The notes below the pieces were generated by a model. It saw nothing but the letters and a program-made list of their open reading frames with translations, did not search any database and was not told the DNA's origin. A program made the position numbers and the translations under genes. A stretch of DNA of 64,000 nucleotides, from positions 560 to 64,559 of the IMG/VR virus record IMGVR_UViG_3300015262_000004, one strand, 5' to 3'. Numbering within the stretch: position 1 is the stretch's first letter; each line of letters starts with the position of its first letter. The stretch is from a virus (Duplodnaviria; Caudoviricetes). This document shows positions 1,671-57,866 of the stretch, in pieces.

Positions 1671-1742
1671 GCAACTTACGCAAGTTACATACGTTGCGTA
1701 ACTGACTTAACTTACACAACTTACTTACCTTCCTTAACTTGC
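1671..1742. repeat. parS-like array of 9-bp tandem units downstream of the par operon
   Basis: gcaacttac gcaagttac atacgttgc gtaactgac ttaacttac acaacttac ... in 9-bp phase. Confidence 0.75.
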
Positions 1743-2062
1743 GTAACCTCATTGCCGCTGACCTCAGCCAGCAGCGCGATCACCTGGTCTGCGTCCATGC
1801 GTTGCAAGGCTCTGACACCGGCGCGCACCACGTCGCTACGGCATACCTTGAAGGTGCGCGGAGCCAGTACGAGCTGGTCGATCTCGGCGTTCATCTCATC
1901 AGTCAGAGAGAAGGTGGTGCGCTTGAACACCGCAACCGACGGCTTTGCACCGACCGCGTAGTTCGTCGCGGCACCGGACGCGAAGGCCTTTATTTGATCC
2001 TCGGTCGCGTGCTGCTGTACCGACTTACCACCGGGCGCCAAGCCCCCTAATGATGCTTTCAT
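1721..2062 (-). CDS. small partition adaptor (type Ib centromere-binding, ribbon-helix-helix-like)
   Basis: Coupled to parA by ATGA; FKRTTFSL...IDQL...RSDVVRAGVRAL resembles an RHH fold. Confidence 0.7.
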   Translation of the reverse strand: MKASLGGLAPGGKSVQQHATEDQIKAFASGAATNYAVGAKPSVAVFKRTTFSLTDEMNAEIDQLVLAPRTFKVCRSDVVRAGVRALQRMDADQVIALLAEVSGNEVTQVKEGK

Positions 2063-2751
2063 GCTTGTGCTCCAACGCGTTGTAGTGCTGCGTGTATCGA
2101 TGGTTCATTTGCCCACAGCTCATGCACCATGGCCGTGGCATCCTCGATCGCCTTCGGGTCGGTGAATTCCCACACGCTCGAACCGTCTTCGTCCGCATCG
2201 TCGTATGCCTGGCGGTCGAACAACACGTTGTCGAGCGTGGGTATGCCCCAGGCCCTGATGGTGTCCTTCGCCGTGAGGATCCGCGATACACGGTTCGGCA
2301 GACTCGGGCACTGGTTCACCAGCGCGCGGACTTTCAGCCCCGGGTTGAGTGCCTGAGCCAGGTTCACCACCTCGACCACCTTCGGCAACGTCTTGAGGTC
2401 GCGGCGCTTCGGACGGAACGGCAATACCATGTAGTCCGCCACGGCCATGGAATGGCGCAGGGCAACCGAGTCGGATGCACCGACGTCGATAATGATGTGG
2501 TCATAGCGCTTCTTGAAATCGTTGAGCGGAGTGCTGATCTCACCACGCAAGATGGCGCACGGTACCGACACGCCTTTGCCGCCGGCTTCGATGAACGACA
2601 CCCGCTCGGCTGCCCAGTCGCTGCTGGTCAGCTGTGGATCCGCGTCGATTAACAGGACGTCGAAGCCCAGCATTCTCAGTATGACGGCCAGCGTCTGGGC
2701 TACGGTGCTCTTGCCCGTGCCTCCCTTGATGTTCCCGACTAAGAGGATCAT
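2059..2751 (-). CDS. parA: ParA partition ATPase
   Basis: Deviant Walker A KGGTGKST, LLIDADPQ, IIIDVG; 230 aa with no N-terminal HTH. Confidence 0.92.
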   Translation of the reverse strand: MILLVGNIKGGTGKSTVAQTLAVILRMLGFDVLLIDADPQLTSSDWAAERVSFIEAGGKGVSVPCAILRGEISTPLNDFKKRYDHIIIDVGASDSVALRHSMAVADYMVLPFRPKRRDLKTLPKVVEVVNLAQALNPGLKVRALVNQCPSLPNRVSRILTAKDTIRAWGIPTLDNVLFDRQAYDDADEDGSSVWEFTDPKAIEDATAMVHELWANEPSIHAALQRVGAQA

Positions 2752-9862: not shown

Positions 9863-9882
9863 GGGTTTCTCTCCAAAGGGTG

Positions 9883-9965: not shown

Positions 9966-9999
9966 TGCAGGCTATCGCTACAACGCGTTGTGGTAAGGG

Positions 10000-10254
10000 T
10001 TATTGCAGGCTGGTGGTCTTGGCGTGCAGGCGCACCATCCAGCGTTCGCGGTACAGGTCCATGCTCTTGGCCATGCGGCCCAAGGCCCTAGCCACTGCGA
10101 GCGGTACGTGCTCGGAATGGTCGCCGGGGATGGCTGCCAGCAGCACCTCGATGTGGATCGATCTCGGGATACAGACATCCGGCAGCGCGTCGGCTTCCAG
10201 CAGTCCGTTCAATTCGTCCAGGGCGTCCAGCAGGGTCTTGAATTCTGGGGTCAT
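10000..10254 (-). CDS. hypothetical protein
   Basis: MTPEFKTLLDALDEL... Confidence 0.5.
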   Translation of the reverse strand: MTPEFKTLLDALDELNGLLEADALPDVCIPRSIHIEVLLAAIPGDHSEHVPLAVARALGRMAKSMDLYRERWMVRLHAKTTSLQ

Positions 10255-10319
10255 TCGGCAGCGTCCAACACGTTGTGGGAGGGAACGCCGCTGGCCCCGA
10301 TACTCTGGGGCTTCGCGGC

Positions 10320-10763: not shown

Positions 10764-10781
10764 GGCAATTAACTCCTATTG

Positions 10782-11306: not shown

Positions 11307-11498
11307 GGGTGAAACCTCCAAGGTTGTCGCGCGGGCATCATAAAGCCCGTTGCCAGTATAAGGCCGCTATGGTACGTCGTCCAATAGTGGACACAGTTGG
11401 ATCCAAGGGAGACATATTGCTTATCTGGCGCCAGTTTCCTAGCGCTAAACCACCTAGGCGCTAGGTTAGTGGGTGCTAATCGGCAACAGTTCCCGGCG

Positions 11499-11515
11499 AT
11501 CCCTACTGTAGGGAC
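11499..11515. repeat. 17-bp palindrome copy 8
   Basis: ATCCCTACTGTAGGGAC. Confidence 0.9.
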
Positions 11516-11759
11516 GCAGAACGCGCACTAAGATTTAGTGCGACACGGCGAACGCTAGGTTAGTGGTTAATTGTGACGCTTAACCCACTCGGGGAGACGT
11601 AAGCGAGCGCTTAACCGGTAGACATCAGTAGACAGTCTGCGCCTTACGCGGTGGACGTGTCTACTCCGTGTGTCAAGTGTACGCGTCTACTGTTTAGCGC
11701 TCTGGCTAGGCTGCGGGGTAAAGTGGGGTAATTTGTCCACTGTGCAAGGCCTTAAAGGT

Positions 11760-12062
11760 GCACAGATGTAAGGTGCTAGGCGGCGATATGTAAAGAGTGC
11801 GGCAACCTCTTACATCGGTTCTAGGCAATGAATACAGGGCTAAATGTAACGATGTAATAAATGTAAGAGTTGCCGAGGGTAGACGTATTAGGGAACGGGT
11901 TGGCTAGGGGGACTAAGCAGCTTAGCGGGCGCCGTTGCTTCGTGGCTGTGCACCGTTAAGCCTTATGTGTCTACTCTTTAAGGTTACATTTATTACATTT
12001 TAACATCTGGCCCCGTGTTTGCTGGGTGAAAGTCCATGTAAAGGCCTAATTGGCTTTACATA
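11760..12062. repeat. cluster of ATGTAA/TTACAT repeats, candidate lytic origin or packaging site
   Basis: About 10 copies; perfect 15-bp inverted pair at 11852-11866 and 11984-11998; lower GC, no ORF. Confidence 0.5.
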
Positions 12063-12159
12063 ATAGTGGCTTAACCCCCGGCCACGCTGGGCCAAACGTT
12101 ACAATGTCCACTTGTCCACCACGTACAGGGCTGCGCCGGGCCTAGTGGCGACGTTCGGT

Positions 12160-12176
12160 GTCCCTACTGTAGGGAT
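12160..12176. repeat. 17-bp palindrome copy 9
   Basis: GTCCCTACTGTAGGGAT. Confidence 0.9.
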
Positions 12177-12404
12177 CTTGGCCACTGGGCAACGCTGCAA
12201 CGCGTTGGGGCGACGTCGCGCCGTAGTGTGTGGGTCCGCACTGGGCAACGTGTTGATGTCGTCCCTAGGCCACGCAGAGCCCCGGCAACGCGTCGCTGCT
12301 GCGTCACCCTGTGCCGTCGTGGGTTCACCCCTGTGCAACGCGTTGCCCGCGCCCCAAGCCTGCGCAGCCACTAGGCAACGCGTTGCAGCGCGCTAGGCCC
12401 GCAG

Positions 12405-12435
12405 GAACGAAGAAGCCCGGCACTAGGCCGGGCTT
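12405..12435 (-). terminator. intrinsic terminator
   Basis: AAGCCCGGC-5-GCCGGGCTT followed by CUUCGUU on minus strand. Confidence 0.7.
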
Positions 12436-12453
12436 GGTACTCCGTGCAACGTG

Positions 12454-13122
12454 TTAGGCAGCGTCGGACTCTGGCACGTCGTCACCCAGCTCGGTTACCT
12501 CCTCGACTTCGTCGGCCAACGCGTTGGACAGTTCTTCGATCATGTCGGCCATGTTCGCGATGATCAGCAACACGTCGTCGGTGTGGTCGCCAGCCCGCAA
12601 CAGATTGAGGCTGGTTTGCATGGCAGCCAAAGCGCTGGCCACCGGGTCCGGTGCTACGTGCTCGCTCTGTGCACCGTCGCCGAGGTCGTCGCCACCTTCG
12701 CCACCGTCGTTGGCCGGGGCCACTGGCAACTTAGGCGCTTGTTCCACGCGGTTGGCTTTGCGGCACTCCGTGGCAGCGTGTTGCAGGTTCTTTGGCAGCG
12801 TGGCCGGCAAGGTCACAGCCTTGAAAATGGCCATGGCATCGGCCACCCGGTTCTTGACGGACTTGGCCGACTTGGCCTCTTCGAACGTGCAACCCTGCAA
12901 CGTGCTGTACGCAGTAGCAAAGGCATCTTGCACGGCTTCACGAGCCGTGTCGGGCTCGACTATGCCGCGTGCTTTCAGCATGAGTTCCAGAACACGTTGG
13001 GACGCAGACATCAGGTCACTGGCGGCCTCGGTTACATCGGCACGCCATGCCAGCACGGAGAACTGGTTAAGTGCGCGGTCTGCAACACGTTGGGCTTTAG
13101 CTGCTTTGTTGGTGGTGGTCAT
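12454..13122 (-). CDS. hypothetical protein with acidic C-terminus, monocistronic
   Basis: 222 aa with its own promoter, leader and terminator. Confidence 0.75.
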   Translation of the reverse strand: MTTTNKAAKAQRVADRALNQFSVLAWRADVTEAASDLMSASQRVLELMLKARGIVEPDTAREAVQDAFATAYSTLQGCTFEEAKSAKSVKNRVADAMAIFKAVTLPATLPKNLQHAATECRKANRVEQAPKLPVAPANDGGEGGDDLGDGAQSEHVAPDPVASALAAMQTSLNLLRAGDHTDDVLLIIANMADMIEELSNALADEVEEVTELGDDVPESDAA

Positions 13123-13201
13123 GGTCGTCTTCTCTCTACAAGGGGTTGGGCGAAGGTGCCCGGTTGGCCGTGGTGGCCGTCTGTCTCAATGACAGGACTC
13201 C

Positions 13202-13230
13202 AATGTATACCTTTGTGGTAGACGGTGCAG
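13202..13230 (-). promoter_or_regulatory. possible promoter
   Basis: CTGCAC-17-TACATT. Confidence 0.4.
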
Positions 13231-13246
13231 AGGACGTCCACCCGTT

Positions 13247-13263
13247 GTCCCTACCGTAGGGAC
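13247..13263. repeat. 17-bp palindrome copy 10
   Basis: GTCCCTACCGTAGGGAC, extends to 13244-13266. Confidence 0.9.
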
Positions 13264-13900
13264 AACCAAGCATTCTTTTCCGGTGCACAGAGGGGGCCAG
13301 GGGGCTGCGCCGGGCGCGCGCTGTTGCTTACCCCCGCTGCACATTTGGCGAAGCCCCGACGTAACTTGACACAAAATCCCCCGGTCGCTCCGTTAACCCC
13401 GCTCCCTGGCCTGCCCCGTAACACACTGTCTACTTGACACGGTAGACACAATTGCTTAGCACTCAAGTACCAGGTAACGCTCCACCAGCGTCCACCCGAA
13501 AAACTCCGTCAGAAAATTCCTACAATTTTTAACACCTGCCCTTGCCAGCCCCCTGGAACCTGCACTAACCTTTGCTCTGCCGCCTTCTCCCAAGATTACG
13601 CGAGCCCTCCGACCGTCACGGCTCGATCAGGTCACTCGGGTAAAACTGGGCGGAAGGTGGCACACAAGCCCACCAGTTTGTGTCGCCTCCAAGGCAAACC
13701 GCAGGGAAACAGTGTCGCTCCCCCGTCCGCTACTCCCACCCAGCGGACGGGGGATCTACATCAAACGTCCGCTAAATCCTGTCCCCCGCTCCCAAATGTC
13801 CGCCGTCGGCTACCATCAGCCGGACGGAACTGGCTACACTGTGTCCGCGTCATACCTGAATCGGCCTCCACTCGGTGGCCACGAATGGAGTGCGACCACC

Positions 13901-14419
13901 ATGGCTACCAAAAAATCTACCCCCCACGAATCCGCCGCGACAACCAGTGAATCCGCCGAAGTGCTGTCAAAGTCCGGTGCCGCACTGGAACAGCAAGCGT
14001 CGAGTTATGGTGAAACCCGTCCGACCCATGTCAACGGCAAGTACGTGGGTGACAAGCGCCTCAACGAGAAAACCGGTGAGTGGGAAGCCGACCCGGATGC
14101 TGTCGCAGCTGAGGGGGGTACGCGCCCCGAGGACATCTTTGACCGCATCGGCAACGCGTTTCCACATGAGGCTCAGCGCCTGGTGATCGAAGAGATCGCA
14201 CTGCGTGCCGGCATGACGGCCGAGTCGAGCCAGGATCTGCCAGACAACTACCCTACCGGCGGCAAGTCGACCGCTTCGTTGCGCTCCGACCTGACCCGCA
14301 GCGGCGGCGAAACCAGCGGCCCCGTGCCGGTACCACCGGGAGAAAACGGTGAGGCAGCGGACACCCCGGCGCCTGCGTCCACCGACGTCAATGGCGCACC
14401 GGCCCGCACCGGACTCTGA
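13901..14419 (+). CDS. hypothetical low-complexity protein
   Basis: ATG 13901 after GGAG; followed by terminator. Confidence 0.7.
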   Translation: MATKKSTPHESAATTSESAEVLSKSGAALEQQASSYGETRPTHVNGKYVGDKRLNEKTGEWEADPDAVAAEGGTRPEDIFDRIGNAFPHEAQRLVIEEIALRAGMTAESSQDLPDNYPTGGKSTASLRSDLTRSGGETSGPVPVPPGENGEAADTPAPASTDVNGAPARTGL

Positions 14420-14432
14420 TCGGTTGACCCTA

Positions 14433-14461
14433 GCCCCGACCCGCAAGGTCGGGGTTTCGTT
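14433..14461 (+). terminator. intrinsic terminator
   Basis: GCCCCGACC-CGCAA-GGTCGGGGT then TTCGTT. Confidence 0.7.
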
Positions 14462-14470
14462 GGAGGTGTT

Positions 14471-14659
14471 ATGGAGCCGCAACCACCAAGAATCGTCCGG
14501 TGCAACGGGGTGAACTACCGCGTGCTGGGGACCGCGAACCGCGCCCGGTCGGGCCGCAAAGCACCCCTGGTTGTGTACCAGGACATGGCCACCGGCTGGC
14601 TGTTCTACTGCACCCAGCAGGATTTCGACGAACACATGTTTCCAACGGGCGAGGTGTGA
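14471..14659 (+). CDS. small DUF1653-like protein
   Basis: YRVLGTA...LVVYQD...G.LF...F pattern; GGAGG RBS. Confidence 0.55.
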   Translation: MEPQPPRIVRCNGVNYRVLGTANRARSGRKAPLVVYQDMATGWLFYCTQQDFDEHMFPTGEV

Positions 14660-14660
14660 C

Positions 14661-14882
14661 ATGGGCAGGGGCATTGATTTGGCGCGGGAGTTGGGCAACC
14701 ACGAACATGCCGACGCGATCGACAACATGAAAGACCAGCTGCTGTTGGTGCTGATCAAGCGCCTGGGCAGCGACATCCGCATCCCCGCTGCTGAGATCGA
14801 CGCCACCGGCGGGTTGATCCTGGAGATGTCGATGGATCAGCTCACGCGTGAGTTTCACTTTGTGGTCAGCGGTAAGCACTGA
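14661..14882 (+). CDS. hypothetical protein
   Basis: ATG 14661 after GAGG. Confidence 0.6.
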   Translation: MGRGIDLARELGNHEHADAIDNMKDQLLLVLIKRLGSDIRIPAAEIDATGGLILEMSMDQLTREFHFVVSGKH

Positions 14883-15079
14883 TGACCCTGACGCTCGACA
14901 CGCTGCGGCCGCACCTCAAGAAAATGCTCCCGGTCGAGGCGCAGCAGCTGTACGTGGACGGGTACAACAAGGCGATCGCGGACGGGTACGAGGATGAGTG
15001 GGTCGAGGCGGCGGCGATGCAGGCCGTCATCGATCGGTACGAGCCCCCGCGCGGACCATGGGTAAAGAGACAAAGGTGA
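14882..15079 (+). CDS. ChaB-like protein
   Basis: LPVEAQQLYVDGYNKA...AAAMQAVIDRY...GPW matches the ChaB pattern. Confidence 0.65.
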   Translation: MTLTLDTLRPHLKKMLPVEAQQLYVDGYNKAIADGYEDEWVEAAAMQAVIDRYEPPRGPWVKRQR

Positions 15080-15118
15080 ACAGCGAGTGAACAATGTGTA
15101 CTTTGTCCGCCACCCGAG

Positions 15119-15147
15119 TTGACGTCCGTCTACTCTGCTGCGATAGT
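15119..15147 (+). promoter_or_regulatory. sigma70-type promoter of the tail-fibre operon
   Basis: TTGACG-17-GATAGT. Confidence 0.55.
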
Positions 15148-15178
15148 TCGGTGAACACGTCCGTCCCGGAGACGAACC

Positions 15179-15490
15179 ATGGACTTTACCGGACTCACCT
15201 ACCGCTTCCGCACCCAAGACACCAAAGCCAGCCGCGCTCGCAAACTGAATAAGTTGCTGGCCACCCCGCTGCCTGCGGCCGATTACTTCCGCGAAGTACC
15301 CCAAACCCCGATGCAGTGGCAGCTGATGTTGAACGCCGCCGTGCGCGACCTGGTGGCTGACGGGTACGCCTTCGATGGGCAACCGCTGCTTGATGGCGGA
15401 CCGCTGGTGTTCCGCACCCGGGACTCGGGGCCGGCGCGCACTCGCAAGCTCAACGTGTTGTCGGCCGTGATTGACGCGGGCAACGCCTAA
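15179..15490 (+). CDS. hypothetical protein with internal duplication
   Basis: FRTQDTKASRARKLNKL and FRTRDSGPARTRKLNVL. Confidence 0.65.
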   Translation: MDFTGLTYRFRTQDTKASRARKLNKLLATPLPAADYFREVPQTPMQWQLMLNAAVRDLVADGYAFDGQPLLDGGPLVFRTRDSGPARTRKLNVLSAVIDAGNA

Positions 15491-18970: not shown

Positions 18971-20116
18971 ATGCCCACTCAAACGGAAGAAATCATTGCG
19001 TTAGCCCAGAGCATTGCGGCCGACATCAAGCTGTTGGCGAACAGCAAAGTCGACCAGGTCGAGGGCAAAGAGTTGTCGACCGAGGACTACACCACCGCCG
19101 AGAAAACCAAACTCGGCGGCCTGGCCAACTTCGACCCGGCAACGCTGGATAGCCAGTTCGCCGCCAAGCAAGACAAGGTGACGGGCAAAGGGCTGTCGAC
19201 CGAGGACTACACGACGCCCGAGAAAACGAAGTTGGCAGGGCTGGTCCCGTCGGATTTCCCCACCTTGGCAATCGCCGCGACGATGGATATCGGCGCGATC
19301 AACTCGCGGACAATCAGCGTTACTGCCTTTGGCGGCGGCGTGGCCATCACGTCGTTGGGCACCGCCCCGGCGGGGGTTACCAGAACCCTGGTGTTCACTG
19401 CCCTCGGCGCCGGCGCAAAATCGATGACACACAACGCCACGTCGCTGATTTTGCCGGGCGCGATAAACCTGACTTTGACGGTGGGCACCGTGGTCGAAGT
19501 GGTGTCGCTCGGCGGTGGTAACTGGCGCGCAACGAGCGTCACCAAGTCCAACGGTCAAGCCGTGGCCGCTACCCCCTTCGCAGGGGGCACGCTGACGGCG
19601 GCATTGAACGAAGCGCCGATGCAGAACATCACGGCCGCCGAAACCATGAATATTGCCGCGACCACTGCGAACACCTGGATTATCAACGCCGGCACCGAAG
19701 GCACAGAGATCGTCAACCTCGGGACCATAGCGGCGGGCGCTAGACGAACCGTAGTCAACCTAGCCAGCCAGATGGTGTTTAAAAACACGAACCTGGCGCT
19801 ACCGAACGGCTTAGACCTGGTTTTCCCTTATGGCGACGTTGTCGAGTTTTTGAGCCAGGGCAACGGCGCTTGGATGTGCGTGGGGTATCTGGCCGCCAGT
19901 GGAATGCTACGGGCCGGGGCGATTCAGGTCAGTCAGTCCGGCGTGCTTGGCGGCCTGGTGGATATTGGCCCCGGGTCCAGCGGGTCCGGCTCGGCGCCGA
20001 TAAAACTACATGCCGGGACTGTCATGGCGACCCCGGAAACCGGCGCCTTTGAGTTCGACGGGAGCGACCTGTTTTTCACCATAGCCGGCCAACGCAAGAA
20101 ATTCACCCTCACGTAA
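18971..20116 (+). CDS. tail fibre protein 3
   Basis: GKxLSTEDYTTxEKTKL twice plus two divergent copies of the module. Confidence 0.78.
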   Translation: MPTQTEEIIALAQSIAADIKLLANSKVDQVEGKELSTEDYTTAEKTKLGGLANFDPATLDSQFAAKQDKVTGKGLSTEDYTTPEKTKLAGLVPSDFPTLAIAATMDIGAINSRTISVTAFGGGVAITSLGTAPAGVTRTLVFTALGAGAKSMTHNATSLILPGAINLTLTVGTVVEVVSLGGGNWRATSVTKSNGQAVAATPFAGGTLTAALNEAPMQNITAAETMNIAATTANTWIINAGTEGTEIVNLGTIAAGARRTVVNLASQMVFKNTNLALPNGLDLVFPYGDVVEFLSQGNGAWMCVGYLAASGMLRAGAIQVSQSGVLGGLVDIGPGSSGSGSAPIKLHAGTVMATPETGAFEFDGSDLFFTIAGQRKKFTLT

Positions 20117-20133
20117 CAAGGGCAAAGCCTGGG

Positions 20134-20150
20134 ATCCCTACTGTAGGGAT
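20134..20150. repeat. 17-bp palindrome copy 11
   Basis: ATCCCTACTGTAGGGAT (compensated outer pair) just after the fibre 3 stop. Confidence 0.9.
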
Positions 20151-20744
20151 TCCGTGGCTTCACCCACTCCCCGGGGTAAGGAGGTATGTGTGCCCGAGGG
20201 GCGGGGCTGGAAAAGGAGGAAGCCAAACAACGGCTTCGCTGAATGGCCTTGTCCTACGCTACGCTACGGAACGGCCGGGATAATGTTTTCGCCTAACGGC
20301 TCAGCCCTTTAGGCAGTCCCTACGGGCCTGCAAAACAATAAGGTTGCGCTTGACAGCGCGCTTGTTTTAGAGCCTTTCCGGCATAGCCGGCCCCGGTAAA
20401 TCGGCCTAAAAAAATAGGCAAATTCACCCGACATTTCCTGCAGCGAGAAAGCACCTGTCTCAGCCTTTCCGCCCAACGCCATTCAACACTTTGCGGGGTT
20501 GGTTACATCGGCGCCCCGGCCCTCCTGGTGTGTTGCGATGGTGGGTTTTGAGACAGTTGCGGTGCCCGTGGTTGGGTTTTAGCTCCGCCCTGCCATTGCC
20601 TTCTCGACCCTCATAGAGGGTTCGCACCTATCGGCCTTGCCAGTCGCCCTGGGAGACCCCCTTGATGGACGACTAATACGTTCCCGCGCCCAAAGCATCT
20701 TGATTCCAAGCGTCGGAAAGAGGTATCGGGAGAGAGAAGGAAGC

Positions 20745-20773
20745 TAGACAAACGACACGAATGCCGCCAGAAT
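20745..20773 (+). promoter_or_regulatory. promoter of the small antisense RNA
   Basis: TAGACA-17-CAGAAT. Confidence 0.65.
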
Positions 20774-20779
20774 TGGCTT

Positions 20780-20892
20780 ACCTGGTCTCGATCCCTGCCC
20801 GCTAAAGCTGAGATTTCCCGAGACCTAGGCTAGAGCGCTTGCCGGCGCCGCTAGCCCGAATGGAACCCCGCCAAGTGCGGGGTTTCTTCGTT
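20780..20892 (+). ncRNA. ~110-nt three-stem-loop RNA (RNA I-like)
   Basis: Stems GGTCTCG/CGAGACC, GGCTAG/CTAGCC, GGAACCCCGC/GCGGGGTTTC plus T-rich tail, just after a promoter. Confidence 0.65.
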
Positions 20893-21028
20893 CTGGGGCA
20901 TCCAAAATGCCACCAGCACGATTTGCAAAAACTTGAATAAAATCTAGCACCTACATCGCATTGGTGCCCCGACAAGATAAGCCGTTTGTCCGACGATCGC
21001 AAATGGATTTTGTGCGGTGGTCAACAAG

Positions 21029-21058
21029 TTGACGGCAAGTTGTTGGCTTAGTTATTGT
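21029..21058 (+). promoter_or_regulatory. possible promoter of the packaging operon
   Basis: TTGACG-18-TATTGT. Confidence 0.5.
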
Positions 21059-21130
21059 CCACTCCGTACACCCATGTGCACTTGCTGTCCACTTGCACAC
21101 AAGCTACCCTCTGCCCAAAGCGAGGTAGCT

Positions 21131-21583
21131 ATGGGCACAGACCTGAATCTTCTATCCCCGGCAGGGCCAGAGCTGCGTCCCGAGTGGTCGATGCGGCTGG
21201 TGATCGACGTTGTGTTGGGTGCCAGTAACGAATCGATCCTGCAATGCCACGACCTGCAGCACCACCAATTCGACCAGATTTGCAAGAATCCGGTGTTCAT
21301 GTCCGCTTGCGACAACATGCGCAAAAGCCTGGACAAGGAAGGCGCGACCTTCCGCCTCAAAGCCCAGCTGCAGGCTGACCATTACCTAACCCGCGTGCAT
21401 GAGATGATCATGGATCCCGAGATGGATCCGCGTGTTACGGCCAAGTTGATCGGCGACGTGGTGCGTTGGGGCGGGCTGGACACGCCACCCCCAGTGGCCG
21501 GCGGCGGGATGGGTTCGTTCTCTATCTCGATCAACTTCCCCGAGAAGGTCCGCCACGGCGTGACCATCGAGGGCGGCCAATGA
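21131..21583 (+). CDS. probable terminase small subunit
   Basis: 150 aa, GAGG RBS, ATGA-coupled to the large subunit. Confidence 0.65.
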   Translation: MGTDLNLLSPAGPELRPEWSMRLVIDVVLGASNESILQCHDLQHHQFDQICKNPVFMSACDNMRKSLDKEGATFRLKAQLQADHYLTRVHEMIMDPEMDPRVTAKLIGDVVRWGGLDTPPPVAGGGMGSFSISINFPEKVRHGVTIEGGQ

Positions 21584-22992
21584 CCGCCTACAACCCGAGC
21601 GTCACGGTGGCGGACTTTATCCTGGACGATCGGGAGTGGACGTACATCGTCGGCCCCGTGGGTTCGGGTAAGTCGGTCGGCATCCTGATGAAAATCCTGC
21701 ACCGCGCCAAGCTGCAGGCGCCGTCGCCGATCGATGGGATCCGGCACACCCGGTGGGTGATCGTGCGGAACACCATGGTGCAGCTCAAAGACACTACCCT
21801 CAAGTCCTGGTTTAGCTGGTTTCCCGACGGCGTTGCCGGCAAGTGGGTGTCCGGTACCAGCACGTTCTGGATGCGCTTCGATGACATTGAGGTCGAGGTG
21901 ATGTTTCGTCCCCTCGATACCCCGGACGACGTGCGCCGAGTGCTGTCCCTGGAAGTGACCGGGGCGATCGTTGACGAATTTGTCGAGATCCCCAAAGAGA
22001 TCGTCGAAGCCCTGTCCGGCCGGTGCGGCCGCTACCCGTCGAAGAAAGACGGCGGCGCCACCTGGTGGGGAATGTGGGGTGCGACCAACCCGGGCAACGA
22101 GGACAACTGGTGGTACGACTGGCTATACAGCGACTGGGAGGATGACCCGGACGGCGCGTTGAAGCGGATGAAACTGGGGTACTACGAACAGCCCAGCGGT
22201 TTCAGTCAGCACGCGGACAACCTGGAGAACCTGCCAGGCGGGAGCAACTACTACCACAACTTGGCCATCGGCCGATCGGACGCCTGGTGCAAACAGTTCA
22301 TCGAAGTGCGCTGGGGTTACAGCCTCAAAGGCAAGCCGGTGTATCGCGCGTTCGTCCCGGATCTGCACGTTGCCAAGCGCCCTATTCCGTACAACCCACA
22401 CCTGCCGTTGTTGGTCGGCTTCGACGCCGGCCTCACCCCGTCCGCGATCTTTGGCCAGCTCTGGCCCGATGGCCGCTTGTGCATCCTGGCCGAACTGACC
22501 ACGGAGAACATGGGCGCGGTGCGGTTTTGTCGTGAAAAATTCAAGCCCCTGGTGGCGATGAGATTTCCCAAACCGCTGCTGCAGTTCGCCGGTGACCCGG
22601 CGATCGTCCAGCGTGCCCAGACCGATGAACGATCGGTGAAAGAGGCCCTGGAAAAAGAGCTGGGCATTCGGGTCTATCCGGCTTCCAGCAACACGTTGTC
22701 CGATCGCCTCGGCGCGGTCGAGCACTTCATGTGCATGTTGACCGAGCACGGGCCGGCACTGCTGATCGACCCGTCGTGCGTCCAGCTCATCCGTGGGTTC
22801 AAGTCGGGTTACCGCTATGCGGTGAGCAACAAGGGCCTGGCCGCCGAGTCGCCAGAAAAGAACGCATTCAGTCACCCGCACGACGCCATGCAGTACCTGG
22901 CCATGGAAGCAAAGGGTGGGCAGATCCGTGACGCCCGACGCAGGACCAGTGCATCTGTCCGGTTCGGCCCTTCCACTAACGCATATTCCTAG
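21580..22992 (+). CDS. terL: terminase large subunit
   Basis: GPVGSGKS, VIVRNT, AIVDE, ATNP, GFDAG, SHPHDAMQY. Confidence 0.92.
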   Translation: MTAYNPSVTVADFILDDREWTYIVGPVGSGKSVGILMKILHRAKLQAPSPIDGIRHTRWVIVRNTMVQLKDTTLKSWFSWFPDGVAGKWVSGTSTFWMRFDDIEVEVMFRPLDTPDDVRRVLSLEVTGAIVDEFVEIPKEIVEALSGRCGRYPSKKDGGATWWGMWGATNPGNEDNWWYDWLYSDWEDDPDGALKRMKLGYYEQPSGFSQHADNLENLPGGSNYYHNLAIGRSDAWCKQFIEVRWGYSLKGKPVYRAFVPDLHVAKRPIPYNPHLPLLVGFDAGLTPSAIFGQLWPDGRLCILAELTTENMGAVRFCREKFKPLVAMRFPKPLLQFAGDPAIVQRAQTDERSVKEALEKELGIRVYPASSNTLSDRLGAVEHFMCMLTEHGPALLIDPSCVQLIRGFKSGYRYAVSNKGLAAESPEKNAFSHPHDAMQYLAMEAKGGQIRDARRRTSASVRFGPSTNAYS

Positions 22993-22999
22993 GTGACCC

Positions 23000-25132
23000 A
23001 TGGTTGACGAATTTGACACGCCGGTCGAAGAGGCCCGCGACATCAACACCACCGAGGGCAAGCGCAAGCTCGGCCGCCACCTGCAGAACAAATTCACCCA
23101 GTACAAGACAGATCGCCAGTCGATCGAGCAGCAGTGGCTGACCAACCTGATGCAGTACCTGGGCAAATACGACGCTGAGTTTGAACAACGCATGGTGGCG
23201 AACACCAGCCGCGCGTATCCGAAGCTGACCCGCGTCAAGTGCGTCAGCGTGGAAGCGCGGCTGATGTCCCTGACGTTCCCGGCCAGCGAAAAGAACTGGT
23301 CGATCGAGGCGTCACCGGTGCCGAGCCTTAGCGCGGACACCCTGACCAGGGCGCTGCAGAACTGGTACGAAGCCAACCAGGGGCAGCAACCGACACAGGT
23401 ACAGCTCGATGGGATGGTGCAGGACGTTGCCACCGGCGTGGCTGACCTGCTGGCGGTCACGATCGATGACCAGCTCAAAGACGTCGACCCGTACGCCAGC
23501 CGCGACTATGAGGCGTTGGTGAAAAAGGTGGTCGGCTCGGCCGTGAAGTACGGCCCCGGGGTGGTTAAGGGTCCAATGGCGGTACAGCAGGACGTGGCCA
23601 GCTTCGAGCTGGACGCCAACGGCGTGCCCACCGTGGTGGAAACCGAGGCGTTCCGCCCGTACCTGGAGTTCGTTCCGTGTTGGCAGTACTACCCCGACCT
23701 CAGCGCGTCGTCGTTCGCGCAGATGGAAGGCGAGTTTCAGCGTCATGTGTTCTCGAAGCACCAATTCAGCCTGATGGCTGAACGGCCAGACTTCGACGGT
23801 GACGCGATCCGCTCATTCATGGCGGGCAACCGCGACGGCAATTACACCGAGCTGGGTTATGAGGGCACGTTGCGCAACCTGGGCACCAACGGGGCCAGCG
23901 CCGTACCGAAGGGCAGCAAGTTCGAGGTGTTGGAGTACTGGGGTTCCGGTTCGGCCAAGCACCTACGCGAGGCCGGGGCAGACATCCCCGCTGACGCCAA
24001 AGACAACAGGCAGTTCCGGTACAACGCGTGGGTGGTGGGTGAGTTCGTTATCAAGATAGCCCTCAATCCGTTGCCAGAAGGCACCAACATTTTCCACAAG
24101 TTCGTGTTCGAGGAAGACGAGATCAGCCTGGTGGGCTCGGGCTTGCCGCCGATCATGCGCGACAGCCAGCTGGGGGTGTCGAACTTCACCCGGATGCTGG
24201 TCGACAACGCGGCCACGGTCTGCGGTCCGAGCGTCGAGGTGGATACCTCGATCATCGACCCGAACCAGACCGACCTGGGTATCAAGGCGTTCCAGGTGTG
24301 GCGCCGCGACGGTGGTACTGCTGGCCAGCGTGCGGTGATGCCGATCACCTTCGACTCCCACATTAGCGAGCTGCTGCAGGGCATCAACACGTTCATGGGC
24401 TTTGCGGACAAAGAGACGTTCGTGAGCCCGGCCGCCGGTGGTGACGTCGAGGGTGTATCGGGTGAGGCCCTGCGTACCAGCAGTGGCGCCTCGATGATCT
24501 ACGGCAACGCCGCCCTGCCCTTCAAAGACATTGTGCGCAACTTCGACCAGTTCACCGTGAGCGTGATCCACGCCCTGGTGGAGTGGAACCGCATTTTCAG
24601 CCCCGACCGCGACCGCCTGATGGGTGACGTGCGCCCGATCGCGCGTGGGGCGACCAGCCTCATGGCTAAAGAAATGCGCTCCTATGCCCTGGACAACCTG
24701 GCGCAGACCCTCACCGAGGAGGAACGCCAGTGGATCAAACCGAAAGCGCTGCTGGTCGAGCGGTTGAAGGTCCGCGACCTCCCGGTCAAAGAGCTGCTGG
24801 AAGACGACGCAGTGGTGGAGCAACGCCAGGCGCAGCAGTCGCAGCAGATGCAGGACCAGATGCGTCAGCAGATGCAGATGTTCATGGCACAGCTGGAGAA
24901 CCTGCAGGCCGACACCATGAAAGCCCTGACCCAAGGGCAGAAGAACTTGGACAACGCGGATGTCGTTGTTTTCAAAGCACTTTTGGAGGCGCTAAAGAAT
25001 GGATCAAGCCCCGAGCAAATCGCAGCAATTGCAGGCCGACTTACAGCGGGCCGCCAAAGCGGCCAACGACAGCCCGCTGGCCAAGACCCTGCAGCGGTAC
25101 CTGGAGGAAACACGCCAATCAGTATTCAGTGA
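23000..25132 (+). CDS. portal protein
   Basis: 710 aa directly after terL, with a Q-rich C-terminal helical extension typical of podovirus portals. Confidence 0.85.
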   Translation: MVDEFDTPVEEARDINTTEGKRKLGRHLQNKFTQYKTDRQSIEQQWLTNLMQYLGKYDAEFEQRMVANTSRAYPKLTRVKCVSVEARLMSLTFPASEKNWSIEASPVPSLSADTLTRALQNWYEANQGQQPTQVQLDGMVQDVATGVADLLAVTIDDQLKDVDPYASRDYEALVKKVVGSAVKYGPGVVKGPMAVQQDVASFELDANGVPTVVETEAFRPYLEFVPCWQYYPDLSASSFAQMEGEFQRHVFSKHQFSLMAERPDFDGDAIRSFMAGNRDGNYTELGYEGTLRNLGTNGASAVPKGSKFEVLEYWGSGSAKHLREAGADIPADAKDNRQFRYNAWVVGEFVIKIALNPLPEGTNIFHKFVFEEDEISLVGSGLPPIMRDSQLGVSNFTRMLVDNAATVCGPSVEVDTSIIDPNQTDLGIKAFQVWRRDGGTAGQRAVMPITFDSHISELLQGINTFMGFADKETFVSPAAGGDVEGVSGEALRTSSGASMIYGNAALPFKDIVRNFDQFTVSVIHALVEWNRIFSPDRDRLMGDVRPIARGATSLMAKEMRSYALDNLAQTLTEEERQWIKPKALLVERLKVRDLPVKELLEDDAVVEQRQAQQSQQMQDQMRQQMQMFMAQLENLQADTMKALTQGQKNLDNADVVVFKALLEALKNGSSPEQIAAIAGRLTAGRQSGQRQPAGQDPAAVPGGNTPISIQ

Positions 25133-25220
25133 CCTGGCCAAGGTAGCGGACATGAGGGAAATCTACATGCTCCAAGGCCGGCTTGAACAAATTCGTCTAC
25201 TTGAGCGTCTACTTTGCTGA
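24999..25220 (+). CDS. small protein overlapping the portal 3' end
   Basis: GGAGG RBS; ends IYMLQGRLEQIRLL like small post-portal proteins. Confidence 0.6.
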   Translation: MDQAPSKSQQLQADLQRAAKAANDSPLAKTLQRYLEETRQSVFSDLAKVADMREIYMLQGRLEQIRLLERLLC

Positions 25221-25267
25221 CAGTAGTCTACCTTGACAACTAGGGTACACCGGAGTACATACCGACC

Positions 25268-26308
25268 ATGGACAATACTGACGATTTCGACAGCGCATTC
25301 GACGAGGCTGCGGCCGATTCAGCACCTGCCGCTGCACCTGCAGCCGTGGCCGAGGTGGATTCCGGCACGCCCGAAGGTGCACAAAAACCTGCGGAAAGTG
25401 TACAGAAAGATACCGCCGAGCCGTCTACTGACGTGTCCACTACGGCAGCCGATCCTGCACCTGCAGCTGACCCGGCGAAACCTGCGGTCGACCCGGCGAA
25501 ACCAGCAGCGGCTGCCAAGCCTGCAGCTGACCCGGCGAAACCAGCGGCTGACCCCGTGGTCGACCCTGTCGACACACCGGCTAAGCCGCTGCCAAAGCCT
25601 GTGGAGCACCCGCAACACCAGCCGCTTGATCCGAAGTACCTGGCTCAGGCCATTGCTGAGGCGCAGCGGTTGAACACCGAGGCGCAGCAGCCGCAGAAGC
25701 CTGCCGCGCCGGTGAAGAAAACACAGGCCGACTACCTGACTGCCGAGCAAAACGCGGCAATCGATCGGTTCAAGCAAGACTGGCCAGATGAGTACAGCGC
25801 GCTGATGCCGCTGTTCAATGCCCAGGTGCAATCGGAGTTGAGCAACTACCGCACTGACCTTACTGCGGAACTGAATCAGATTCTGGCGCCGTTGTTCCGA
25901 ACCGTTGGAACAGTGGAGGTGAACAGCCACCGCAACACGTTGCTGGCAGCCCACCCAGACATCGACAGCCTGGACACGGAGAAGGTGCGCGAGTGGATTG
26001 ACACTCAACCATCCATGTTCCGTCCCACCATGCTGGCGGCGTTTGAGAAGGGTACGACCAAAGACGTGGTTGAGTTGCTGAACATGTACAAACAGTCAAC
26101 CGGTGTAACGAGTGCAGCGCCAGCCACACCAGCCTCGTTGGCCCAGACAAAACCCACTGCTGTCCCCGCCGCGCCTAAGCAACCAGTTGATCCTGCCGCG
26201 AAAGCAGCACTGGCCGCCGTACCCGCAGCGCAAAGACAGCAACCCTCGGCACGACCTGGCGATGACGACTTTGATGCCGCCTTCGCCGAAGCCGTGGGGC
26301 AGGGATAA
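25268..26308 (+). CDS. scaffolding protein
   Basis: Acidic, Ala/Pro-rich ADPAKP repeats; DDFDxAF at both termini; precedes the capsid gene. Confidence 0.75.
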   Translation: MDNTDDFDSAFDEAAADSAPAAAPAAVAEVDSGTPEGAQKPAESVQKDTAEPSTDVSTTAADPAPAADPAKPAVDPAKPAAAAKPAADPAKPAADPVVDPVDTPAKPLPKPVEHPQHQPLDPKYLAQAIAEAQRLNTEAQQPQKPAAPVKKTQADYLTAEQNAAIDRFKQDWPDEYSALMPLFNAQVQSELSNYRTDLTAELNQILAPLFRTVGTVEVNSHRNTLLAAHPDIDSLDTEKVREWIDTQPSMFRPTMLAAFEKGTTKDVVELLNMYKQSTGVTSAAPATPASLAQTKPTAVPAAPKQPVDPAAKAALAAVPAAQRQQPSARPGDDDFDAAFAEAVGQG

Positions 26309-55187: not shown

Positions 55188-55483
55188 GGTTCAACCTCGC
55201 CATTCAGTCCATGTCGACAACCTGTTGTCGCAAGGTCGCCGCCTTCTGTTCCAGCCGTTCCCGCCTCGCTGGGTCTTTTACCGTGGCAGCCAGCAACGCC
55301 GCCGTCTCTGTTGCCTTGATCAGTACCGCCTTCAATCGCTGCTTGTTCATGCTTACCCACCCTTGGCTTGTTCGTTACCATTCCGAAGTCTTCCCGGAGT
55401 TTTTCTATCCGGGTGCAGTCGATGCACTCGCGTGTGCCGATGCTGTGGAAATAAACCCAGCAGTGCTTGCGCGGCTTTCTCAT
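55184..55483 (-). CDS. hypothetical protein
   Basis: Coupled to the polymerase stop; second half overlaps an alternative ORF. Confidence 0.4.
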   Translation of the reverse strand: MRKPRKHCWVYFHSIGTRECIDCTRIEKLREDFGMVTNKPRVGKHEQAAIEGGTDQGNRDGGVAGCHGKRPSEAGTAGTEGGDLATTGCRHGLNGEVEP

Positions 55484-57603
55484 TACTTACACTCGCTGTA
55501 CCGGATGCCGTGGCCACCCTCGGCCGCAAGCGGCAGCTGTGGCCACCAGGTAGGCGACTGACTCATGACGCCGAGCATAAAGGCCAGGCAGTCATCCGCT
55601 TTTTCCTCCTTCACCACGGCAACCACTTCGTCGTGCACTGTCAGGGCCACGCCTTCCAGTGGGTCAGGGCTGCGGTACTTGTGCTGCACTTCCAGCATCT
55701 GATCGAACACCGCGTTACGAGCAAGCCACTGGCTGACGTTCTCCGTCACCGACCCGCCGTAAATCTTTTTCATGTGACGCTTTTCTTTGTCGTCGTAGAC
55801 CCATTGCATCTCCAGGTCGCCGTCGAAATTCTCCAGCAGTTCCTGCCGTAGGTTGTGGTACACGATCGGGTTACGGCCTGGCTGGCTGATCTGGCCATCG
55901 TCGATCTTGCACAGCCCCCACTGGTCGATGTACCCGCCGCCACCCCGGGCCATCCGTGGGATCGCGTTCTGGCAGCTGCGCCACAGCTTCGGTATCTCTG
56001 AGAACCTGCTGCGGTACACGGTCACGGTGCCTTGCGATTCATCCTCGCTGAGCCGGATGCCGCCCATGGTTCGAGCCGCGTTCCTGAATGACTTCCATCC
56101 CGACTGGTACTGCAGCTGCAGCATGCCGACCTTGCCGTGTTGCCGCTCGGTGTAGTCCGCCTTGGTGATCGTCCTGTTGTACAACGTGCTGGCAAAGGAT
56201 GAGTACACGTCGACGCCGGCCCGCAGCTCGGCGATCGTGTCCATCTGACCAGCCAGCAGGTGGCACACCCGCAGCTCGATCTGCGCCGAGTCAGCCACCA
56301 CGATTCGATACCCCGGCGGCGCCTCGATCGCGTCACGCAAACCGACAACGTGGCACGACTGCTGCCGCTCGTTGCTGTACACCGCGCCGTTCGCACACTT
56401 CACCTGGCCTGTGACCAGGTGGTAATCCAGCAGCCTGTCAGGCCCGTGCGGGGTCATGATCAGGGTACCCAGCGGCGTTTTCTTGCTGACCTTTCTGGTA
56501 CCGGTCAGGTTCTGCATGTTGATCTTCTGCCCACCGGCCAGGCGGTGGGTGTGAACCTTGCCGTACACCATCGGCACGGGCAGCCGGCCCCGCCCTGCGA
56601 TGTTGATAAACCGTTCTACCCGTGACTCGTTGATGGTTGATTTAACGCTGAGTCGAGCGGCGGCCAGTGCCTGTATATCCTCGGCCCCCTGCGGATCTGA
56701 TTCGTCTTCGTAGTCCAGCAGCGCAACCATCGGCTCATCGGTTTTCGCAAACGCGTACACCACCATCGGCGAACCGTCGGGGTTCTTTTTCTTGGGGCTC
56801 AACTTGGTCGGTGGGTCGATGTCGTAGTGCTGCTTGAACACGTCGGCCAGTACGGCGTCCTTCCTCAACAGCCGCTGGACTTCCAGCGTCCGGGTCAGTG
56901 CATCCGTACCCGCCGGCACGCCCATGATGTCGGCCACCCGCATCATCAGCTTGCCCTTTCGTATCTCCATATCCTGCGCCATGGTGCACAGAAGTGCACG
57001 GTTTAGGACCAGCTTGGGTTCGGCAAACATCGAGGTGGACAGACTGGCCAACCACAACTCGTTGACGGGCATCTGTGGCACGAACAAGTTGAACAATTCA
57101 AAGCAGCGATCGCTGTCGTCGCAGCAATAATCGCCGTAGTCCTGCAGTTCCCACGGGGTGAAGTCCGCGCGGCGTTTGTTCACGTACGTTTTGACCTGGG
57201 TGCCCTTGGCCTTCAACCCGTACAGCTCACACATCGCAGCCAGGGACTTCGCCTGCTTGCCACCGTGTAGCGACCGTGCCATCTGCAACGTGCAGCCATA
57301 GCCGGCCGGTCTGACGCCGATGATCTCGGTCAGGATGAACGCGTCGAACTCGGAATTGTTGTGCCCTATGCAGAAAATGCGGTGCCACGGCAGGGCTCTC
57401 AGGATCCCGCGCAGATACTCCAACGTGCCCGAGTACCAACGTGCCGGCGCCCGGCCCTTCTTGATGCTGAATCCAATGATCTCGAACCGAGGATCCCTAA
57501 CGTATTCCTCGGTCGTCATGTAGGTCAGGGAGTACCCGCCCTGGTCCTTGGTGGTGTAGAACGTTTCGAAGTCGAGGGTCAACTGCAGCAACGGTTCGTT
57601 CAT
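55483..57603 (-). CDS. DNA polymerase family A with 3'-5' exonuclease
   Basis: LDFET, HN..FD, YC..D; NMQN, DSAQIELR, RQHGK...LQY, TVHDEV; GGAGG RBS at ATG 57603. Confidence 0.93.
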   Translation of the reverse strand: MNEPLLQLTLDFETFYTTKDQGGYSLTYMTTEEYVRDPRFEIIGFSIKKGRAPARWYSGTLEYLRGILRALPWHRIFCIGHNNSEFDAFILTEIIGVRPAGYGCTLQMARSLHGGKQAKSLAAMCELYGLKAKGTQVKTYVNKRRADFTPWELQDYGDYCCDDSDRCFELFNLFVPQMPVNELWLASLSTSMFAEPKLVLNRALLCTMAQDMEIRKGKLMMRVADIMGVPAGTDALTRTLEVQRLLRKDAVLADVFKQHYDIDPPTKLSPKKKNPDGSPMVVYAFAKTDEPMVALLDYEDESDPQGAEDIQALAAARLSVKSTINESRVERFINIAGRGRLPVPMVYGKVHTHRLAGGQKINMQNLTGTRKVSKKTPLGTLIMTPHGPDRLLDYHLVTGQVKCANGAVYSNERQQSCHVVGLRDAIEAPPGYRIVVADSAQIELRVCHLLAGQMDTIAELRAGVDVYSSFASTLYNRTITKADYTERQHGKVGMLQLQYQSGWKSFRNAARTMGGIRLSEDESQGTVTVYRSRFSEIPKLWRSCQNAIPRMARGGGGYIDQWGLCKIDDGQISQPGRNPIVYHNLRQELLENFDGDLEMQWVYDDKEKRHMKKIYGGSVTENVSQWLARNAVFDQMLEVQHKYRSPDPLEGVALTVHDEVVAVVKEEKADDCLAFMLGVMSQSPTWWPQLPLAAEGGHGIRYSECK

Positions 57604-57635
57604 CCAGCCTCCGAAACCGAGCGCGACCCTCGATC

Positions 57636-57866
57636 TCAATCCATGGGGTTATCCTTGGGTAGGTCGGCCTCGACTTTGCGCAGTTCCGCTAAGACGACTT
57701 CGCCCCCCGCGTGGCCTGGCTCGAACACGAACGGATACGTTCCGTTGCGCACGTTGCACACCACAGCCCGGGTTTTGTTACACAACTTCCCGATCTGGCT
57801 GTCGGTGTATCCAGCGTTGGCCAAGGTCTTAAACACTTTTTGCCAATCGGTCATGGGTGGCCTCAT
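57636..57866 (-). CDS. small Cro-like HTH regulator
   Basis: GYTDSQIGKLCNKTRAVVCNVRNG. Confidence 0.65.
   Translation of the reverse strand: MRPPMTDWQKVFKTLANAGYTDSQIGKLCNKTRAVVCNVRNGTYPFVFEPGHAGGEVVLAELRKVEADLPKDNPMD

Follow-up and report, generated by a model that had tools for sequence, protein, structure and literature searches.

A PAGEV RNA opposed by a three-hairpin antisense RNA in a Pseudomonas-type tailed phage: a candidate captured plasmid replicon

The gap between the fibre and terminase genes of a tailed virus (Duplodnaviria; Caudoviricetes), IMG/VR record IMGVR_UViG_3300015262_000004, contains a PAGEV RNA on one strand and a short, three-hairpin antisense RNA on the other, both within a block of DNA that is homologous to Pseudomonas plasmids. 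We consider that this gap (positions 20117–21130, 1015 bp) is a captured, protein-free plasmid replicon, of the kind represented by PAGEV and by the marine RNA-based (MRB) replicons of Vibrio, which would allow the phage to persist as a plasmid, and we give this reading a probability of about 0.55. The block is an insertion relative to Pseudomonas phage Rollin, it is retained in assemblies from other studies, and the fold of its antisense RNA is kept by paired changes among alleles. Transcription of a long RNA II, priming, copy control by the short RNA and a plasmid lifestyle would follow by analogy with known replicons. The initial annotation of this DNA had proposed a ColE1-like, Rep-less replicon; an ORF-free (open reading frame-free), plasmid-type module of a long RNA and its antisense RNA, with Pseudomonas plasmid homology and PAGEV, is indeed present, but its family ties are to PAGEV and the MRB plasmids and not to ColE1. 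All positions refer to the window, the whole stretch of 64,000 nucleotides (nt) that was analysed, which comprises bases 560–64559 of a 64,559-bp record that has terminal repeats and is rated 100% complete.

Results

A PAGEV RNA lies in plasmid-homologous, non-coding DNA

When the whole window was searched against Rfam at the gathering thresholds, PAGEV was the single match (Table 1; gathering score 61.1 bits), and its membership in the family is indicated both by a score above this cut-off over the full model and by the association with gammaproteobacterial plasmids. Weinberg et al. (2017, PMC5737381) presented PAGEV among three motifs associated with plasmids and as occurring in Gammaproteobacteria, and according to their text one example of the seed alignment lies in the predicted origin of a P. 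syringae plasmid, resembling an experimentally defined replicon of unknown mechanism. Downstream of PAGEV, a sub-threshold match to the Pseudomon-groES RNA was seen on the plus strand at 20309–20419 (25.6 bits versus a cut-off of 50, E 0.042), probably reflecting mere hairpins.

Comparison of the gap with 72,556 plasmids (PLSDB) by blastn returned 12 records, all of them from Pseudomonas; eight span 20472–20895 at 77–78% identity, four more match partially, and the matches to this block always fall in unannotated DNA. In the alignment with the plasmids, homology extends from the 3′-end of PAGEV to just past the terminator of the short RNA, and 15 of 15 plasmid or contig loci match the block. 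PAGEV scored above its cut-off in all four plasmid loci tested, with 104.7 bits in pPMA4326D, and in 4 of 151 sampled genomes of the genus Pseudomonas. Moreover, a 20-base motif of the PAGEV loop was present on 11 contigs among the GTDB species genomes, 10 of which belong to Pseudomonas (of the fragi/lundensis/helleri/saxonica kind); these Pseudomonas contigs are mostly small, and one of 2179 bp has a coverage of 4565 in its title. The initial annotation knew of no such replicon in Pseudomonas, a view that has to be given up since the module is found on at least 12 Pseudomonas plasmids of PLSDB. A 6.2-kb contig filed under Pedobacter (JBCLAL010000017.1) carries a Pseudomonas-type module together with the helix-turn-helix (HTH) gene described below, reflecting either assembly contamination or a plasmid outside Pseudomonas.

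Several of the plasmid relatives (pLz4W and P. fragi plasmids) are only 4.5 kb long and have no annotated Rep gene, and toxin-antitoxin genes are found among the plasmid relatives. A gene for an HTH protein of 135–139 amino acids lies ∼220 bp past the RNA I terminator in 13 of the 15 Pseudomonas plasmid loci, and pPMA4326D, like the phage, is without it. The HTH protein gave weak PHROG matches to phrog_22784 and to the small-terminase family phrog_57 at E 0.004–0.007. A terminase-like gene common to the plasmids and the phage was considered and dropped, because the 139-amino-acid HTH protein and the product of the ORF at 21131–21583 are unrelated. Plasmid pAM10.6 was likewise discarded as a Rep-less plasmid, because RepA is present.

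The gap holds 12 small ORFs, none of which was shown by tblastn against the plasmid homologues to be preserved as an uninterrupted frame in relatives. Among the ORFs with a full plasmid translation in the tblastn alignment, several have stop codons in the plasmid homologues (20460–20627, 20491–20616 and 20637–20747). With a homologous block of 424 bp, the gap fits the ORF-free origin of about 500 bp that is typical of MRB replicons. GC skew was uninformative on the position of an origin.

Table 1. Positions of the fibre–terminase gap, the RNA module and the phage and plasmid genes discussed in the text
Feature	Position	Strand	Basis or remark
Last tail-fibre-like gene	18971..20116	+	Left border of gap; PHROG tail and tail-fibre families
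Non-coding stretch past PAGEV in the RNA II sense	20137..20471	.	Candidate RNA–DNA transition/origin zone and terminators; putative role
Predicted RNA II (pre-primer), ∼500 nt (498-nt candidate)	20400..20897	-	Predicted from the layout of Vibrio MRB-type loci and PMC3035462
Block homologous to Pseudomonas plasmids (RNA I with promoter, PAGEV)	20472..20895	.	blastn
PAGEV RNA (Rfam RF03037), conserved core of predicted RNA II	20477..20715	-	89.5 bits, E 2.4e-20, full model 1–185 of 185
Sigma-70-like promoter of antisense RNA, TAGACA-17-CAGAAT	20745..20773	+	9/12 consensus matches
RNA I-like antisense RNA, ∼115 nt, three hairpins, the last an intrinsic terminator	20780..20894	+	5′-end placed from the promoter
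Candidate extended -10 for RNA II, TGGCATTTT	20904..20912	-	Weak; sequence present, unreported by promoter scan
Conserved phage gene in small-terminase position, directly 5′ of TerL	21131..21583	+	Right border of gap
Large terminase (TerL)	21466..22992	+	phrog_2, E 1.5e-19; 57% identical to Pseudomonas phage Rollin
DUF927 protein, 1005 amino acids	44920..47937	-	PF06048, E 1.9e-24; 45% identical to Rollin
Family A DNA polymerase (PolA)	55483..57639	-	PF00476, E 1.4e-14; 49% identical to Rollin
ParA-like partition ATPase	2059..2751	-	Pfam AAA_31/CbiA/MipZ; phrog_164, E 1.5e-40
ORF of 113 amino acids, possible ParA partner (ParB/ParG-like)	1721..2062	-	Position only; 4-base overlap with the parA stop
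HTH gene of plasmid loci (examples)	L002:2032-2451; L005:945-1352; 11 further loci	- (L002); + (L005)	

The short antisense RNA has a conserved fold and variable loops

A promoter scan of the gap reported two promoter-like sites, including TAGACA-17-CAGAAT, whereas the mean for shuffled sequences was 0.5. The RNA that would start from this promoter (20780–20894) folds into three hairpins with a minimum free energy of -52 kcal/mol (z -4.5), and 0 of 200 shuffled sequences were equally stable; the stem of the terminator-like third hairpin occupies 20862–20886 and is followed by a T-rich tail. This promoter and a three-hairpin RNA of ∼110 nt with a terminator had been pointed out in the initial annotation, and both are present at that place, the RNA measuring 115 nt here.

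We recovered 11 distinct sequences of the short-RNA region, of which 10 were aligned for covariation. Across the 11 promoter alleles the CAGAAT hexamer is invariant, and the other hexamer is either TAGACA or TGGACA. The consensus fold of the 10 aligned alleles again consists of three hairpins, and 5 of its 35 predicted pairs, located in hairpin 2 and the terminator, are kept by two-sided changes. Towards their tips, hairpins 1 and 2 differ among the alleles. Conserved stems with variable loops are the pattern described for the incompatibility-setting RNAs of MRB and ColE1 replicons by Le Roux, Davis and Waldor (PMC3035462).

The predicted long RNA is probably related to Vibrio RNA-based origins, and its likeness to ColE1 is at chance level

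If the layout of Vibrio MRB-type loci applies, the predicted RNA II would run leftward through the complement of RNA I, then through PAGEV, up to a hairpin with a T-run at 20420–20405. Along this path, every minus-strand word quoted in the initial annotation was located where it had been placed: TTGGAATCAAGA at 20709–20698, a run of five G residues at 20661–20657, GGAAAGGCTGAGACAGGT at 20470–20453, TGTCGGGT at 20433–20426, and GTAGCGTAGCGTAGG. These words had been read as motifs of ColE1 RNA II in the order in which they occur there. The words do occur in ColE1 in that order, but the agreement is at the level of chance, as a collinear chain of shared words as good as that against ColE1 RNA II was reached by 157, 55 and 218 of 300 shuffled sequences at word lengths of k=6, k=7 and k=8, respectively, and the word TTGGANTCAAGA, common to both sequences, is expected by chance (30 of 200 shuffles). 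Local alignments with ColE1 RNA II, proposed as a check in the initial annotation, gave z values of -0.4 to 2.3, and for z values near 2 the score was reached by 2–7 of 150 shuffles. PAGEV was not found in ColE1 at E values up to 10, and a covariance model built on the PAGEV 5′ domain gave no match, even with filters off, at the ColE1 hairpin that contains TTGGACTCAAGA. Because alignments, the 5′-domain model and the word chain all remained at chance level, we rejected homology of the long RNA with ColE1.

The short RNA gave a similar picture. The Rfam RNAI model (RF00106), which the initial annotation had suggested as a further check, matched the antisense RNA at the exact place and strand with 22.4 bits and E 0.17 (1401 bases × 4227 families), below the gathering score of 47 bits; sub-threshold RNAI matches of 26.6–27.4 bits were found at the equivalent place in three of four plasmid loci, and the real ColE1 sequence scored 73.8 bits. 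The likeness to ColE1 would hence be functional only, and membership in the ColE1 family is not supported.

A comparison with Vibrio RNA-based replicons had also been recommended in the initial annotation. Le Roux, Davis and Waldor (PMC3035462) reported that an MRB origin of 488 bp without an ORF replicates autonomously in Vibrio with no Rep protein, that its RNA II of at least 465 nt covers all of RNA I, and that RNA I, 68 nt long with two hairpins, represses the cognate replicon; the family, with pB1067 as an example, was reported to be restricted to the Vibrionaceae. A V. campbellii plasmid is named as a carrier of a Vibrio-type ColE1-like origin by Ares-Arroyo et al. (2021, PMC8683028), who grouped this Vibrio type with ColE1-like plasmids. 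On this V. campbellii plasmid (NZ_CP026317.1, 195 kb), two loci matched PAGEV above its cut-off, at 113 bits and 78 bits, and a third gave only a weak 18.5 bits, all within 20 kb (L137, L138 and L139). At L137 an opposite-strand promoter lies just 5′ of PAGEV, 50 nt away, and would drive a two-hairpin RNA of 68–71 nt whose second hairpin is a terminator with an A-run on one side and a U-run on the other. In pSIO1 (NC_006860.1, L161/L162), PAGEV scored 122 bits in a 1-kb non-coding stretch. By blastn, the Vibrio block is present on 61 Vibrio or Photobacterium plasmids, some of only 1.8–2.3 kb; those of 1826–2285 bp bear the block of RNA I and PAGEV and are near-minimal replicons.

Thus PAGEV lies directly 3′ of an antisense RNA I in Rep-less, MRB-type Vibrio plasmids, and we read it as the conserved core of an MRB-type RNA II, an assignment that rests on the layout and on the fit of these Vibrio plasmids to the published description. 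The link is made by the PAGEV model only: blastn of the gap found no Vibrio plasmid among the plasmids searched, and blastn of the Vibrio block found only Vibrio or Photobacterium, so that neither the nucleotide homology nor the Vibrionaceae setting of the MRB family extends to the phage block.

The module is absent from phage Rollin and retained in other assemblies

The structural and replication genes of the phage are syntenic with those of its nearest known relative, Pseudomonas phage Rollin, at 25–58% identity, and window positions 1–15,400 have no counterpart there. The ORF at 21131–21583 gave no family in Pfam and PHROG searches, and is 49% identical to a Rollin ORF in the equivalent position. 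The fibre–terminase junction measures 150 bp in Rollin versus 1015 bp here, and the module is therefore an insertion relative to Rollin. The terminase and fibre families, the synteny with Rollin and the 100% complete record show a complete tailed-phage gene set.

Among the public sequencing runs listed for this stretch, none was an RNA run, but independent assemblies were available as Logan contigs of three runs from other studies (X3, X4 and X5). A 14-kb contig of X5 covers 20198–26000 without a break at ∼95% identity and joins the module to the terminase genes; in this contig 1224 other letters stand in place of the neighbouring fibre gene (18979–20197), and the side with the replicon and the terminase is retained. 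Contigs of X3 and X4 cover 20137–20714 and 20137–20367, respectively, and both diverge to the left of 20137. A hotspot of fibre exchange thus lies directly beside the module. The differences listed include 20791 A>T (in X3 and X5) and 20814 T>A (in all three runs); these two positions pair with each other in the predicted first hairpin, and the pair is kept. These observations suggest stable retention of the module in this phage lineage.

Searches among other viruses were negative. The module matched none of 50,697 phage records by blastn, and no relatives of TerL were found in IMG/VR. A 14-base motif gave only chance-level matches, and an 18-base motif was found in two contigs, neither of which has PAGEV. 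The literature search, which covered the main text of open papers, brought up no account of this module in a phage, nor of the Pseudomonas form with three hairpins.

The phage encodes ParA and its own replication proteins and no recognized integrase

The ParA system noted in the initial annotation is borne out by Pfam and PHROG (Table 1). Relatives of this ParA at 50–56% identity are named Pseudomonas proteins, including ParA of P. syringae pv. maculicola, and no Pfam family was found for the 113-amino-acid product of the ORF beside it. The closest ParA relatives lie on contigs of 65 kb (75% identity) and of 77–86 kb (50–56%, several from named Pseudomonas), and the contigs of relatives P0003, P0005, P0007, P0009, P0013, P0014 and P0044 may be further phage-plasmid-like elements. 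Models of tyrosine (PF00589) and serine (PF00239) recombinases gave no match in the phage, with positive controls, and hence no integrase or resolvase was seen. ParA, a plasmid-type replicon recognized by homology and the lack of an integrase would together fit a phage-plasmid.

Besides PolA and the DUF927 protein, which we take to be primase-helicase-like, the phage encodes an SNF2 helicase, a PD-(D/E)XK nuclease, an exonuclease and an ATP-dependent ligase, and no plasmid initiator was recognized among its replication genes. The initial annotation had counted on a lack of both integrase and Rep genes; the former agrees with the recombinase searches, and the latter holds only as far as a plasmid initiator is concerned: none was seen, but the phage has replication proteins of its own.

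Two further genes were noted. A protein of 141 amino acids (4284–4709, minus strand) has an MvaT C-terminal DNA-binding domain (E 3.8e-08), a xenogeneic silencer of the Pseudomonas type that fits a Pseudomonas host. In the early/replication arm, a protein of 391 amino acids (62806–63981, minus strand) combines DUF2201_N metallopeptidase and VWA-like domains.

Discussion

A proposed captured RNA-based replicon and its alternatives

In the reading that we prefer, host RNA polymerase would make a leftward RNA II of ∼500 nt with PAGEV as its conserved core, and, by analogy with MRB and ColE1, this RNA would form a primer or R-loop for leading-strand synthesis somewhere in 20137–20470. The rightward RNA I of 115 nt, complementary to the 5′ part of RNA II, would bind it through loop–loop contacts and limit initiation, which would set copy number and incompatibility. 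Such a module and ParA would jointly enable the circular phage genome of 64.5 kb to replicate and to segregate like a low-copy plasmid, no integrase being needed, and the phage PolA and primase-helicase would serve lytic replication.

Several observations weigh against this proposal. The fold of the 498-nt RNA II candidate is no better than that of shuffled sequences (z -0.09), and no minus-strand promoter passed the scan of the gap, so that the start of RNA II is only a weak candidate; the TGGCATTTT stretch at 20912–20904 is not conserved with the Pseudomonas plasmids. The zone past PAGEV in which the origin would be expected is also unconserved with the plasmids by blastn, and MAFFT alignment of 20137–20471 showed patchy likeness only, consisting of the T-run, GCCGAT and a GC-rich hairpin. 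The plasmid 139-amino-acid HTH gene has no homologue in the phage (best tblastn E 5.9), and were this protein required, the module of the phage could not work by itself. Comparative support among phages is missing, as the 20-base PAGEV loop motif is on no other viral contig of IMG/VR, and PAGEV was found in none of five other ParA-bearing viral records. Finally, the phage brings its own complete set of replication genes, and no repressor was recognized in the ORFan-rich early region, so that a temperate or plasmid lifestyle would be putative.

Another use of the module is conceivable, in which PolA would extend the RNA II R-loop during the lytic or carrier replication of the phage itself, or RNA I would act in trans on resident PAGEV plasmids, which may carry defences, through incompatibility or exclusion. 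In favour of such a use, the phage has PolA and a primase-helicase-like protein with no recognized initiator, the closest relatives of the module are on small, apparently high-copy plasmids of the likely host species, and those plasmids bear toxin-antitoxin genes. However, no plasmid allele seen has the RNA I loops of the phage, and such differences are reported to abolish cross-repression in MRB and ColE1 replicons (PMC3035462); the whole of PAGEV is kept, and not RNA I alone; and Rollin has the equivalent replication genes without the module. We therefore regard this use as unlikely. Several of the points held against a working replicon would be accounted for if the module were a neutral passenger, that is, a 430-bp plasmid fragment gained by illegitimate recombination at a module junction and non-functional now: plasmid homology covers RNA I and PAGEV only, the phage is without the HTH gene that 13 of 15 plasmid loci have, conservation does not extend to the downstream part, and the scan gave no promoter for RNA II. 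A decaying fragment would hardly be expected to have its promoter, three hairpins, terminator and full-length PAGEV intact despite ∼22% divergence from the nearest plasmids. Moreover, the module is kept in phage variants of other studies in which the fibre gene is swapped, one double change in these variants keeps a pair, Vibrio origins of this kind need no plasmid protein according to PMC3035462, and pPMA4326D is without the HTH gene too. On balance, an inert passenger seems quite unlikely to us.

The remaining two alternatives fare worse. An antisense pair with a strong small RNA would in outline also fit a type I toxin-antitoxin system or another small-RNA pair unrelated to replication, and a match to istR was seen at 20860–20961 (19.9 bits, E 0.29). 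None of the 12 small ORFs of the gap has a hydrophobic segment (the highest 19-residue Kyte–Doolittle mean being 0.99), several have stops in plasmid homologues and none was shown to be conserved as an intact frame, so that a small toxin ORF behind the antisense pair was rejected; the family, moreover, is tied to plasmid origins in what PMC5737381 and PMC3035462 report, and this explanation appears very improbable. A chimera of a plasmid fragment and a phage contig has to be considered for a metagenomic record whose module has relatives on high-copy plasmids, and it is hardly credible: the unbroken X5 contig, with the X3 and X4 contigs, rules out such an assembly artefact for practical purposes.

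Implications

Taken further, the captured replicon suggests a tentative scenario, possible at best, in which a phage with its own replisome became a phage-plasmid by capturing a 430-bp RNA replicon alongside ParA, and switches between RNA I-limited plasmid replication and PolA-driven lytic replication, the three-hairpin RNA I with PAGEV representing a lineage that bridges ColE1 and MRB. If this were true, the Pseudomonas form would be an undescribed lineage between the ColE1 and the marine MRB families, which were proposed to be convergent. If the module works as proposed, half a kilobase of non-coding DNA would be enough for a phage to adopt a plasmid lifestyle, PAGEV would gain a defined function as the core of RNA II, and a compact, protein-free Pseudomonas origin would be at hand, with RNA I loops that could be altered to adjust its compatibility. 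Small Pseudomonas plasmids that were typed as untypeable or as ‘Rep/iteron’ may be RNA-primed; Romaniuk et al. (2019, PMC6896180), for example, treat the replication modules of the Antarctic ones among these plasmids as Rep/iteron.

Comparison with known systems

RNA-primed, Rep-independent origins are already known from ColE1-type plasmids, from MRB plasmids and, functionally, from the plasmid prophages of mycobacteriophages. In the present case a member of PAGEV, a curated RNA family of unknown mechanism, forms a naked insertion in a Pseudomonas-type phage, and Rollin is without it. The account of PAGEV given by Weinberg et al. (PMC5737381) offers no mechanism for the motif and considers a trans-acting or replication RNA as possible; the present example differs in that it sits in a tailed phage and is paired with a three-hairpin antisense RNA.

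The initial annotation was not aware of such a replicon in a phage-plasmid, but RNA-based origins of plasmid prophages have been described in mycobacteriophages. Wetzel et al. (2020, PMC7157519) reported that parABS mycobacteriophages form plasmid prophages from an RNA-based origin at 1–2 copies per cell, and their account includes experimental proof of function. Like those phages as described there, the present one is tailed, lacks a recognized integrase and has a partition gene, and it has a non-coding RNA replication region, here by homology only. Unlike here, those phages are actinobacterial and have the origin beside parABS, whereas the module of the present phage is 18 kb from parA, and a sequence relation between the two kinds of origin is not expected.

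With ColE1/pMB1, which use an RNA II pre-primer, RNA I, RNase H and DNA polymerase I, the module shares its logic and an antisense RNA of ∼110 nt with three hairpins, and a position of this RNA at the 5′-end of the long RNA, as in ColE1, would depend here on the unmapped RNA II start. It differs from ColE1 in that RNAI is sub-threshold here, PAGEV was not found in ColE1 and the sequence likeness of RNA II and the origin is at chance level. The small cryptic Pseudomonas plasmids pLz4W, pA22BJ2/pA4J1 and the 4.5-kb P. fragi plasmids have the block of RNA I and PAGEV in the same order and spacing as in the phage at 77–78% identity, and they carry the 139-amino-acid HTH gene beside the block, whereas the phage does not. 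Compared with MRB replicons, RNA I is longer here (∼115 nt with three hairpins, and not 68 nt with two stem-loops) and the setting is Pseudomonas. The general plan is nevertheless that of the MRB type: an ORF-free origin of ∼0.5 kb, in which a short RNA I with its own promoter and terminator opposes the 5′ part of a predicted long RNA II whose core, in the Vibrio plasmids examined, is PAGEV, and in which loop variation is expected to set compatibility. The order in the window is also that of the Vibrio loci, with the RNA II start region followed by the complement of RNA I, PAGEV, and then ∼100–300 nt of non-coding DNA.

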